From Blastocatellia bacterium (lineage in GTDB: Bacteria; Acidobacteriota; Blastocatellia; UBA7656): DNA of 64,000 nt. Both the position numbers and the translations under genes were made by a program. Below, one piece after another: positions 18,989 to 22,301 of this stretch (within the stretch, counting starts at the first letter, position 1; every line of letters begins with the position of its first letter). The stretch covers positions 480,001 through 544,000 of the forward strand of contig CAVXWP010000002.1 of assembly GCA_963765495.1 (NCBI GenBank). Direction: 5' to 3'. The notes under the pieces are model-generated. The model did not search any database. It worked only from the letters and a program-made list of their open reading frames with translations, and was not told where the DNA came from.

Positions 18989-20635
18989 ATGGAAAATTCC
19001 AAATTACGTTTTAATCGCACGAGTCCATCACTTCATCTGATAGCGATTGCCGTCATATTTGTCCTTGCCTTTTTAGGCTATGTTGCTGTCATCTGGTCAG
19101 GAGGGCTTCGCGGCTACGATCCGAGCAAGGTAGTCGCTGCCCGCGATCTGGCTCTATTTGTTCCGTTAATCGCCATCTTCTTCTGGCTGACGCGCAAGCA
19201 GAAATATCGCGGCGAGATGCTGCTGTTGACCGTGGCGATATTTCTCTTTGCCTTTGGTTTGTTGATGCAGTATCGGCTCTTTTCCGATCCCGAATACGGC
19301 GCTCGGGGCGGGGAGCGGTCAAAGGCGCGAAGCGCCAAGGCCCAGACCATACGGCTGCTGAATATCGAGACGGCCTACGACGACGAGAAAAAGACCTTTC
19401 TCTTTGGCAAGCCCGATGCCGTTCCCGAACGCCCGGCTGCCGAAACCAAGGAGGTATACGAATATACCACGGGCGACATTCTGACCTCGGTAAACACATA
19501 CATACCGATAGCCGCGTTTCTGGCTCTGGCAGTGGGTTTCGCGGTTTTCAAGAGCGACAATATGCTCCTGTGGCTGCAACGCCACGCCCTGCTCATAGGG
19601 CTGGTCACGCTGCTGCCGTTTGCAATCGTGGTGCTGCTCTTTAGTCAGGAAGGAAAATTTCTCGGTCAGACAACACCCTGGGAGGCTGTAAAGATACTCT
19701 TCCTTGTGAGCTTCGCCGGGATGCTCGCAGACACATATCATCATTTGCGCCGAACGCGCTGGGGATTGCCTCCGGCTCGTTATTTCTTTCCCTTTCTGTT
19801 GATAGCGGCCATGCCCGTGGTTCCCTTCTTCGCGCTGTCGGACTTCGGCCAGATGTTAGTCTTCTTCGGCGTTTACGTTATGCTCTACATCGTAGCCGTT
19901 CGCAAAAAGGCGCAGATGGCCTATGCGCTGCTGCTTGTGGCCGTAGTTTTTGGCGGATTCTTTTTGGCTTCGAGCGCGAAATCAGGCTTTGGCATCCCGG
20001 GCCGCGTCTATTTCAGGTTTTATCAGTGGGCCCACACCTGGGAGCCGCCACCGCCCGATACCTGGTGGTGGAAACGAGATTACGAGCGATATTTGAAAGC
20101 AACCAACCTGAATCCTGACCCCAATAACGAGCGGGAAGTCGCCCAGCGCAACCGCGAGGCGTGGTCCGACAAGGTGCTGCAACAGTCTCAAGGATTGTTT
20201 GGCATCAACGGGGGCGGCGTGACGGGTGAAGGGCTGGGGCTGGGCTACCCGGAGACGGTCCCAATATCGGATTCGGATTTCATCTATGCCGCTGTTGGGG
20301 AGGAAACTGGGCTTATGGGCGGGCTCGCTTTGCTGCTAGCTATAGTTGTATTCGTTTTCGCAGGCACTGCCATCAGTATTGGGGCTACAGATATGTTCAC
20401 AAAGCTGCTGGCCGCCGGATTTACTGCATTCGTGGGCTTTCAGGCTATAGTCAATATCGGAGGCGTGCTCCGCTTACTTCCTATGACCGGAATCACACTG
20501 CCTTTTGTGAGCCACGGCGGCTGGTCGCTCATCACCTCTTTTGCAATGCTCGGGATACTTCTGGCCTTCTCTCATCGTAACGCCGTCGCGCGTCCGATCG
20601 TAGAGAAAACGCCTGAATTTATTCCCGTCAGGTGA
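18989..20635 (+). CDS. SEDS family peptidoglycan glycosyltransferase (RodA/FtsW-like)
   Basis: SDFGQ, GEGLGLG, SDFIYAAVGEETG and PMTGITLPFVSHGGWSL motifs. Confidence 0.9.
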   Translation: MENSKLRFNRTSPSLHLIAIAVIFVLAFLGYVAVIWSGGLRGYDPSKVVAARDLALFVPLIAIFFWLTRKQKYRGEMLLLTVAIFLFAFGLLMQYRLFSDPEYGARGGERSKARSAKAQTIRLLNIETAYDDEKKTFLFGKPDAVPERPAAETKEVYEYTTGDILTSVNTYIPIAAFLALAVGFAVFKSDNMLLWLQRHALLIGLVTLLPFAIVVLLFSQEGKFLGQTTPWEAVKILFLVSFAGMLADTYHHLRRTRWGLPPARYFFPFLLIAAMPVVPFFALSDFGQMLVFFGVYVMLYIVAVRKKAQMAYALLLVAVVFGGFFLASSAKSGFGIPGRVYFRFYQWAHTWEPPPPDTWWWKRDYERYLKATNLNPDPNNEREVAQRNREAWSDKVLQQSQGLFGINGGGVTGEGLGLGYPETVPISDSDFIYAAVGEETGLMGGLALLLAIVVFVFAGTAISIGATDMFTKLLAAGFTAFVGFQAIVNIGGVLRLLPMTGITLPFVSHGGWSLITSFAMLGILLAFSHRNAVARPIVEKTPEFIPVR

Positions 20636-20777
20636 AATTTGGGGCCGGTTTTCATATTTTGCGGCATTTGTGTCCCAATTCGAGCGATTGTAAAATAGCT
20701 CTTAACGGTAGGGGCAATCAAAGAAAGTAGCAGTATATGCAACAGATAGCGCGTGAAATAACCTTGATTCAGAAGAC

Positions 20778-20793
20778 TGGCACGAGTGTTGCT
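20778..20793 (+). promoter_or_regulatory. Sigma-54 (-24/-12) promoter
   Basis: TGGCACG-AGTG-TTGCT, an exact match to the TGGCACG-N4-TTGCW consensus. Confidence 0.7.
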
Positions 20794-20803
20794 CCTTTAT
20801 AAG

Positions 20804-20893
20804 ATACATTTTAAGGGCATCACCCACCCAACGATGCTCGCAAGATACAACCTGAGGGGCCAAGAGGCATCGGATGATTCCGATGCCTTTTTA
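20804..20893 (+). ncRNA. Candidate sigma-54-dependent small RNA (about 90 nt)
   Basis: Bounded by the sigma-54 promoter and an intrinsic terminator. Internal hairpin GGGCATC-ACCCACCCAAC-GATGCTC. No credible ORF. Confidence 0.5.
20865..20892 (+). terminator. Rho-independent terminator
   Basis: AGGCATCGGA-TGAT-TCCGATGCCT, a 10-bp stem followed by a T run. Confidence 0.8.
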
Positions 20894-20989
20894 CTTTGCC
20901 CGGAAATAAAAGACGCAACTCAGATGATAAGGTTTGGCATCCGAATTCGCAGAGCCATTAATACTTCCAAAATGCAGGTTAGAATGCTT

Positions 20990-21096
20990 GAAATAGACCA
21001 CGGATGAACGCGGATGCGACGGATTTTCGCGGATCTGATCAAATATGGTCAAACACGTGCCGGTCCGTCGCATCCGCGTCCGTCCTGGCCTATTTC
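20990..21096. repeat. MITE/REP-like inverted-repeat element of about 107 bp with CGGAT periodic arms, copy 1
   Basis: Ends GAAATAGACCACGG...CCTGGCCTATTTC, CGGAT every 9-10 nt. Related to 63123-63230. Confidence 0.8.
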
Positions 21097-21148: not shown

Positions 21149-21179
21149 CCGGCCCCGACCCCCGACACCTGGCCCCCGG
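21149..21179. repeat. Degenerate GC-rich heptamer tandem repeat
   Basis: CCGGC CCCGACC CCCGACA CCTGGCC CCCGG, abutting the VWA gene stop. Confidence 0.65.
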
Positions 21180-21180
21180 T

Positions 21181-22110
21181 TTAATATTTGGCCCGGTAGC
21201 GGCCTGGATGAGAGCCTTTAGTGCGAAGTTTAATATCATCGGTATGTGGCATCAGAAGAAGTCTTCTAGCGTTTATCGGGCTTATACCGGAGGGCGCGTA
21301 TACCAGACGATACCAGTTCTTTCTCAAGTCTTCGCTAATCTGCTTGGCGGCATCAGCGATGTTCTCGAAATCTAAAATCGCGCCGCCTGTGCCTGTGGTG
21401 AGTTGTTCGAGCGCCGCCGGGGGCTTGGGCTTGTCTCGAAGAAGCGCCCCGCGCGTACGGTCCTTTACCTGAATGGCATAAAGGATAATATTTTCATCCT
21501 GTAGCGCATAAAGAGCATCATCGAATTTAGTCTTGCTCTGGCTGTCGTAGCCGTCGCTTATCAGGATGATGACACGTTTTTCTATTCCGGTCTTAGCCTG
21601 ATGCGCAAGCGCATCGGATACGGCTATTATCGCGTCGAACAGGTTTGGGACACCTTTGCGAATGATCTTTGACGATGCCGCTTGCAGCTTTGAAAGATCG
21701 GGGGTCATGTCTTCGATGATCTCGGCCGATTCGTTGTAGCCGACAAGCATCATCTCGTCATCTTCGTAAAGTTCGTTTACAACGGCAAGCACTGCCTGCT
21801 GGAGAGCGCCGGCATCGGCCTTGAGGCTCAGACTGCTATCTATCATCAGGATGATGCGAGAGCCTTTGTCGAGACGGGTGAATGATTCGATCTCTTGAGG
21901 AGTCCCGGCATCATACAGATCAAACTCGTCTCTTGAGACCTGTCTGCCTTCGGGCGCGTGAACTATAACGTTCAACGTTTCCGTGCGGCTGTAAGGAGCG
22001 CTTCCCTTTCCCGATTGCGCCTGAGTTGCGCTGGCAAGGCTAAGCGACACGATCAACAATGATATGAGTCTGAGTGATGAGAGCGGCATCGAAGACTTTA
22101 CCGATGGCAT
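21181..22110 (-). CDS. Secreted VWA-domain protein (Acidobacteria VWFA-related type)
   Basis: Signal peptide, MIDSSLS (DxSxS MIDAS), IILISDG and LTTGTGG. SD AGGAG before the ATG at 22110. Confidence 0.85.
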   Translation of the reverse strand: MPSVKSSMPLSSLRLISLLIVSLSLASATQAQSGKGSAPYSRTETLNVIVHAPEGRQVSRDEFDLYDAGTPQEIESFTRLDKGSRIILMIDSSLSLKADAGALQQAVLAVVNELYEDDEMMLVGYNESAEIIEDMTPDLSKLQAASSKIIRKGVPNLFDAIIAVSDALAHQAKTGIEKRVIILISDGYDSQSKTKFDDALYALQDENIILYAIQVKDRTRGALLRDKPKPPAALEQLTTGTGGAILDFENIADAAKQISEDLRKNWYRLVYAPSGISPINARRLLLMPHTDDIKLRTKGSHPGRYRAKY

Positions 22111-22301
22111 TTGAACTACTCCTGGGCAAATGTTGTTAAAAGGCTGGCGATACTGCTTTCGCAAACCGCCGCGTAGCGATTTCAGTAAACGATTTTCCGG
22201 CAATCAAATTATTCCAGAACGATGCGGAGGCGCGCAACTCCGACCGTCAACAGGGTGGTTTATGGTATCGGGAAAAGACCCGGCAAGCTCTCAGTAATTT
22301 C

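Follow-up and report, generated by a model that had tools for sequence, protein, structure and literature searches.

The window, i.e., the whole 64,000 nt of Blastocatellia DNA that was analysed, harbors a sigma-54 promoter box and two hairpins in the gap between a rodA-like gene and a convergent gene for a VWA-domain protein. The features of this region, several of them predicted, are the following:

18989..20635, plus strand: FtsW/RodA/SpoVE-family gene upstream (PF01098), syntenic neighbor of the window copy
20641..20677, plus strand: conserved enhancer-like element with the core GGCAWT-NN-TGTCCCA at 20663-20677; predicted sigma-54 activator site
20739..20749, plus strand: conserved CAACAGTTA-like element, some 38 bp upstream of the box, degenerate in the window copy; imperfect IHF-like site with a putative role
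20778..20793, plus strand: sigma-54 -24/-12 promoter box, exact consensus
20804..20893, plus strand: predicted small RNA of about 90 nt (fold and covariance model), its start placed by the position of the -12 element
20815..20839, plus strand: hairpin P1 with a C-rich loop at 20822-20832; two-sided change in 3/7 pairs, 97% of cells paired
20849..20863, plus strand: 15-nt linker AACCUGAGGGGCCAA, invariant across the aligned copies; predicted main recognition segment
20865..20892, plus strand: intrinsic-terminator hairpin with U tail; two-sided change in 4/8 modelled pairs, 99.3% of cells paired
21181..22203, minus strand: convergent VWA-domain gene (PF13519, PF00092; supported by synteny)

The original prediction had claimed a box TGGCACG-N4-TTGCT, and this was present exactly at 20778-20793. 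The hairpin at 20815-20839, the linker and the terminator stem of 10 bp (20865-20888), with a U tail reaching 20892, were likewise found where they had been placed. It had further been stated that the box lies between the two convergent genes with no protein gene to drive. This agreed with the gene calls, as the next long gene called on the same strand downstream, of the HU/IHF family, lies 1.6 kb away. The rpoN gene, on whose presence the prediction depended, was present in the genome. The upstream DNA, described as AT-rich, was only modestly so (58% AT over 142 bp). The strict box was seen 8 times in the 7.3-Mb genome compared to 1.2 times expected, and boxes with other spacer lengths were seen 0-4 times. 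The fold of 20804-20893 had an energy of -32.3 kcal/mol (z -4.98), and none of 200 shuffled sequences was as good. The terminator hairpin was absent from the output of a simple terminator scan, probably because the fold runs the stem into the U tract.

Two kinds of repeats were also seen close to the locus. The stretch 20920-21003 is one unit of a dispersed repeat (about 84 bp), to which many other stretches of the genome are related. Tandem repeats of the heptamer GGCCCCY/GACCCCY occur at 21150-21180 and genome-wide; they are intergenic and often stand directly before start codons.

The source genome has three copies of the RNA at unrelated loci, one at rodA, another before recA and the third next to a proteasome-family (hslV-like) gene. 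By BLAST, the RNA was found in 21 of 24 genomes of the Blastocatellia family and in 0 of 16 others. With the covariance model it was found in 30 of 34 family genomes, with 1-4 copies per carrier genome. The model gave one weak match among 116 other genomes of the class and none in 150 genomes drawn across the phylum. The weak match (G157, 29.7 bits) was discarded, since it was merely a terminator with a partial linker. The four family genomes without the RNA belong to two genera, and one of these keeps the rodA-VWA arrangement without the promoter. In GTDB a pattern scan matched 104 times: 67 matches were full copies including the box, one was an RNA that lacks it and 36 did not show the architecture; the titles of the full copies were mostly Blastocatellia, and a few carried other taxon names. 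Metagenomes added 67 further stretches, and viral contigs gave no match to the RNA. In one locus (L217) the whole unit was tandemly duplicated, including the promoter.

The prediction that promoter and hairpins would be conserved in relatives held. The sigma-54 box was located 18-26 nt before P1 in 127 of 130 copies. Of the 131 pattern matches, the four not counted among these 127 were a chance match, a foreign copy, a copy with a lost box and a copy with a degenerate -24 element. Both stems covaried: in 38 distinct sequences 98.2% of cells were paired and 7 of 15 pairs showed two-sided change. None of 500 shuffles reached values as high, a control which is inflated by the relatedness of the sequences. 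Across the stems 29 G-U pairs were counted versus a single A-C pair, and this excess fixes the plus strand. The linker was invariant in all 36 aligned copies derived from BLAST and in all 29 loci derived from the model, although both searches favor copies that have retained the linker. The loop occurred in 29 variants among 131 copies. A pseudoknot between loop and linker was rejected, as none of its 3 pairs showed two-sided change. In a recA-side copy (L264, genome G022) the promoter was lost and the linker sequence had decayed, as would be expected if selection acts on the transcript. A metagenomic copy (L196) that lacks the box and has an intact RNA counts against our preferred reading (see below).

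Rfam showed no gathering-level match in the window and only two chance-level matches at E = 3. No description of such an RNA in the lineage was found in our literature searches, as had been supposed; motif catalogues in supplements or elsewhere could contain it. We are highly confident that the locus is a real, uncatalogued sigma-54 small-RNA gene restricted to this family. Acidobacteria are abundant in soils, and we found no trans-acting sRNA circuit described for Blastocatellia in the literature.

The core of the enhancer-like element sits about 108 bp before the -24 box at the window copy. The TGTC(C/T)CA core was located about 108 bp upstream in copies of the rodA type and 125 bp upstream in the recA type, and was anchored in 90 of 101 non-recA and 22 of 24 recA-type upstream regions. 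In total 111 intergenic sigma-54 boxes were called in the genome. By eye, many of these seem to precede genes that we take to be of small membrane, CBS-, Hsp20- or pilin-like type, and the boxes possibly represent a sigma-54 stress regulon. Only 5 of the 111 had the word TGTCBC at -105 to -126, and three of these five were the RNA copies. The extended core occurred twice in the genome, each time at an RNA copy. The extended pattern was derived from the RNA loci themselves and about 3 chance occurrences are expected, and the two occurrences therefore show only that the core is not used elsewhere. We infer that one activator may be largely devoted to these RNAs. By motif, the genome has 26 candidate activators. 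A candidate near the third copy was rejected, being 82-83% identical in four RNA-less genomes.

An IHF-like site had originally been proposed near 20757-20769. This site was misplaced: its spacer has 2 bases versus 4 in the consensus, and a site with a 4-base spacer was found in the proposed zone in none of 101 upstream regions, the window included. The CAACAGTTA-like element was present, with up to 2 mismatches, in 57 of 101 regions, compared to 1 of 101 for either of two control stretches.

For the function of the RNA we favor, with a probability of roughly 0.55, regulation of other mRNAs by base-pairing, i.e., a Qrr-like, enhancer-dependent small RNA. An enhancer-binding protein at the shared upstream site is predicted to activate transcription from the sigma-54 promoter. 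The RNA of about 90 nt would then pair with other mRNAs, presumably helped by Hfq, the gene for which is present in the genome. The invariant linker would act as the main seed and the C-rich loop as a second seed that could cover ribosome-binding sites of the GGUGG type. The enhancer-dependent regulatory RNA that had been proposed is upheld with regard to rpoN, the conserved box and the copies away from rodA, only in part with regard to the loop as the working part, and not with regard to the IHF site. For the loop, a match to the ribosome-binding site of one conserved gene speaks in its favor, while the 29 loop variants, the invariance of the linker and weak co-variation speak against it.

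Other readings of the conserved structure were weighed against base-pairing. The element sits between convergent genes and might serve merely as a rodA/VWA terminator; it might also be a DNA site, or a gene for a tiny protein starting at an ATG in the first stem; 29 of 38 aligned copies have this ATG in the reading frame of the linker. We consider all of these very improbable. Copies also lie at unrelated loci away from rodA and have their own promoter, so that the hairpin is more than a rodA terminator, as the original prediction had held. The RNA-less genome L174 keeps rodA-VWA with a different hairpin and with the box missing. The strand specificity of the G-U pairs argues against any reading without an RNA. 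In 9 of 38 copies the frame does not stay open, and the linker shows no variation at third codon positions.

A more serious competitor is a decoy function as in GlmY or CrcZ: the linker would be a protein recognition site through which the RNA titrates an RNA-binding protein. A 15-nt segment that is fully invariant, with no conserved mRNA target found, fits such a role, as does the GGGGC sequence that the linker has in common with a second family of sigma-54 RNAs, where it is part of GGGGGC loops (see below). A RapZ-family gene lies beside rpoN in the source genome, but RapZ-family genes are widespread and were present in 7 of 14 control genomes. Sponges of the Csr/Crc type carry repeated sites, unlike the single motif per RNA seen here. 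Moreover, csrA was not found in the source genome, which is 98% complete, and no Rfam match to GlmY/GlmZ or CrcZ was obtained. We regard a decoy as possible, at about one chance in four.

For base-pairing through the loop, the best predicted target is a family-specific gene for a protein of 128 aa (G000:C1:1300083-1300469). It adjoins the recA copy in back-to-back orientation, is equipped with a separate sigma-54 box and was present in 23 of 24 family genomes and in 0 of 16 others. The protein had no Pfam family, and an Atlas search gave low-score leads only. Its ribosome-binding site is GGGTGG, a sequence present at this position in 18 of 5575 genes. The 34 orthologues comprised 29 from RNA-bearing and 4 from RNA-less genomes; one further orthologue was excluded, as the RNA of its genome had not been retrieved. 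A Watson-Crick helix of at least 5 bp between loop and ribosome-binding site was possible in 23 of 29 RNA-bearing genomes and in 0 of 4 RNA-less genomes, compared to a background of 89 of 1859 genes. In 6 of the 29 genomes the helix had 4 bp or less, and genomes with multiple copies get several chances for a match. An ordinary Shine-Dalgarno site likewise contains GGUG (16S 3' end). In all three genomes of genus g4 loop and ribosome-binding site were switched together (CUACC with GGUAG). Cognate pairing compared to permutations gave p = 0.03 for 29 genomes, but the median p was 0.20 with one genome per genus, and p was 0.32 without genus g4; an initial test with 20 genomes had given p = 0.14. 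The co-variation rests on genus g4, and the predicted pairing at the 128-aa gene is a weak lead, not a proof.

Upstream of the 128-aa gene, at L023:3554-3783 (G000:C1:1299853-1300082), the sigma-54 box is followed by a leader of 230 nt with conserved blocks and a hairpin. This could represent a further RNA or a leader that regulates in cis. As another loop target, thrB was rejected, the site being present in 1 of 3 parsed leaders (of 6 loci).

The 15 invariant bases of the linker exceed the usual need of one mRNA seed. When the linker was compared to mRNA leaders, rankings in single genomes had no clear outlier and no conserved target was found. A family-wide search with a seed plus ATG pattern gave mainly self-matches, with no recurring leader among the matches listed. 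Several candidates were dropped. For dnaJ, 24 leaders were parsed from 30 loci, one of them ending at a contig edge, and the site was present in only 1 of the 24. The recA leader had a match in 13 of 23 cases, and this was absent from the source genome. An enrichment of the seed complement at -50 to -21 of start codons was traced to the GGCCCCY heptamer repeats. Among the candidate leaders, that of trehalose-6-phosphate synthase had no orthologue in the loci retrieved.

The linker might instead act on a tRNA with the anticodon CAU, which we take to be of the Ile2 type (the ARAGORN label is Met). By invading the 5' strand of the acceptor arm or imitating its 3' strand, it would hold down the decoding of AUA or the processing of the tRNA. 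The linker can form a helix of 10 bp, including one G-U pair, with tRNA bases 1-10, the best among 49 tRNA genes called, and a helix of 13 bp with one tRNA precursor in the source genome. Of 1000 shuffles, 2 reached 10 bp when only the first 14 bases of each tRNA were counted, but 51 did so when the helix could lie anywhere in a tRNA, and the lead was found after the fact. In three genomes of RNA-less genera the linker shares 12 identical bases with the tRNA 3' end, but only 8 with that of the source genome's own tRNA. UU at -2/-1 of the tRNA gene was seen in 6 of 17 cases in RNA-bearing genomes, where the pairing with the leader is retained, versus 0 of 13 in others; it is missing from 11 of the 17. 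The same tRNA 5' end occurs in RNA-less genomes, so that co-variation offers no test, and no synteny was seen between RNA copies and the tRNA locus. The match may reflect an origin from a duplicated tRNA 3' end and not a function; such a duplicated end or chance is likelier than function, and we give an action on the tRNA little credence. Integration often occurs at the gene for the CAU tRNA, and partial 3' duplicates were seen in many family genomes (L318, L319 and relatives).

A close copy of the RNA (model E 6e-15) was found at L097:1423-1582 (G041:C9), titled Candidatus Saccharibacteria, in a 1-Mb genome of Patescibacteria type that gave no match for rpoN. The copy lies antisense between dnaK and genes leading to dnaJ. 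It has a sigma-70-like promoter and an added 5' hairpin; this scores as a terminator, and the copy may therefore not be expressed. Apart from weak terminator-like or unrelated matches, no such copy was found in 60 relatives by BLAST or in 39 by the model. With one genome only, an assembly fault is possible. A scheme that joins these leads would have a signal-induced anti-tRNA or mimic of the tRNA arm gate AUA-containing genes while the loop silences ribosome-binding sites of the GGUGG type, with a symbiont of Patescibacteria type having captured a copy behind its own promoter. We rate this scheme as a long shot, just like the tRNA reading itself. Should either the tRNA link or the captured copy turn out to be functional, this would amount to a new mechanism.

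Regulation by base-pairing, our preferred reading, has its closest parallel in the Qrr RNAs. The report on qrr1 describes LuxO-driven sigma-54 transcription and repression of litR (PMC10162802), and a five-copy state is described for Qrr of the Vibrionaceae. As far as these accounts go, the features in common are a stand-alone short RNA behind a sigma-54 box with an upstream activator site (here judged from sequence), an intrinsic terminator, an hfq gene in the genome and several paralogues with a common conserved segment, here in 1-4 copies per genome. In contrast to Qrr, the RNA belongs to another phylum, the activator-site motif differs from the one described, and Rfam gave no gathering-level match for Qrr in the window and none at E up to 5. 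The family mirrors the layout of the Qrr circuit: there are several copies, and these have an enhancer in common as well as a recognition segment that does not change. Its activator site is defined, and its candidate target lends itself to tests in E. coli.

For the homologous sigma-54 small RNAs GlmY and GlmZ of Enterobacteriaceae, GlrR sites of the form TGTC-N10-GACA and IHF sites between enhancer and promoter are described (PMC3045617). The activator sites found here also start with TGTC, and the recA-type copies read TGTC-N9-GACA. The spacing differs from the N10 of that description, being N9 in the recA type, while the rodA type has GGCAWT-NN-TGTCCCA, and there was no Rfam match. No link to glmS was seen in the neighborhoods examined. 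The RNA has about half the length of GlmY. CsrB, RsmZ and CrcZ contain repeated GGA or AAN motifs, unlike the RNA described here. With 6C RNA of Actinobacteria and other small RNAs with C-rich loops it shares, by the published account (PMC6486639), a hairpin loop whose C-rich sequence could pair with G-rich translation starts. It differs from 6C RNA as portrayed there by the variable loop, the separate invariant linker, the sigma-54 promoter and the lack of an Rfam match. Overall, the RNA would work most like Qrr and its promoter resembles that of glmY; by model match it belongs to neither.

A second family of sigma-54 RNAs with twin hairpins and A-N-GGGGGC loops was observed at four loci (L181-L184; G000:C1:817688+, C1:952462-, C7:734999+ and C9:169177-). 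It has no Rfam match and lacks the enhancer word of the linker RNA. Pairing of the linker RNA with these four RNAs was unremarkable (-8.5 to -15.2 kcal/mol). Taken with the other sigma-54 RNAs of the genome, the linker RNA suggests that a large sigma-54 regulon, with its 111 intergenic boxes, has a layer of RNAs beneath it. A precedent exists in paralogous RNAs for which pairing with leaders dependent on sigma-54 has been predicted (PMC4626219, as far as that source goes). A short element on the plus strand at G000:C12:184994 is structured and contains two AGCCCCCTT motifs; these are complementary to the GGGGGC loops, which makes the element a possible partner of the second family.
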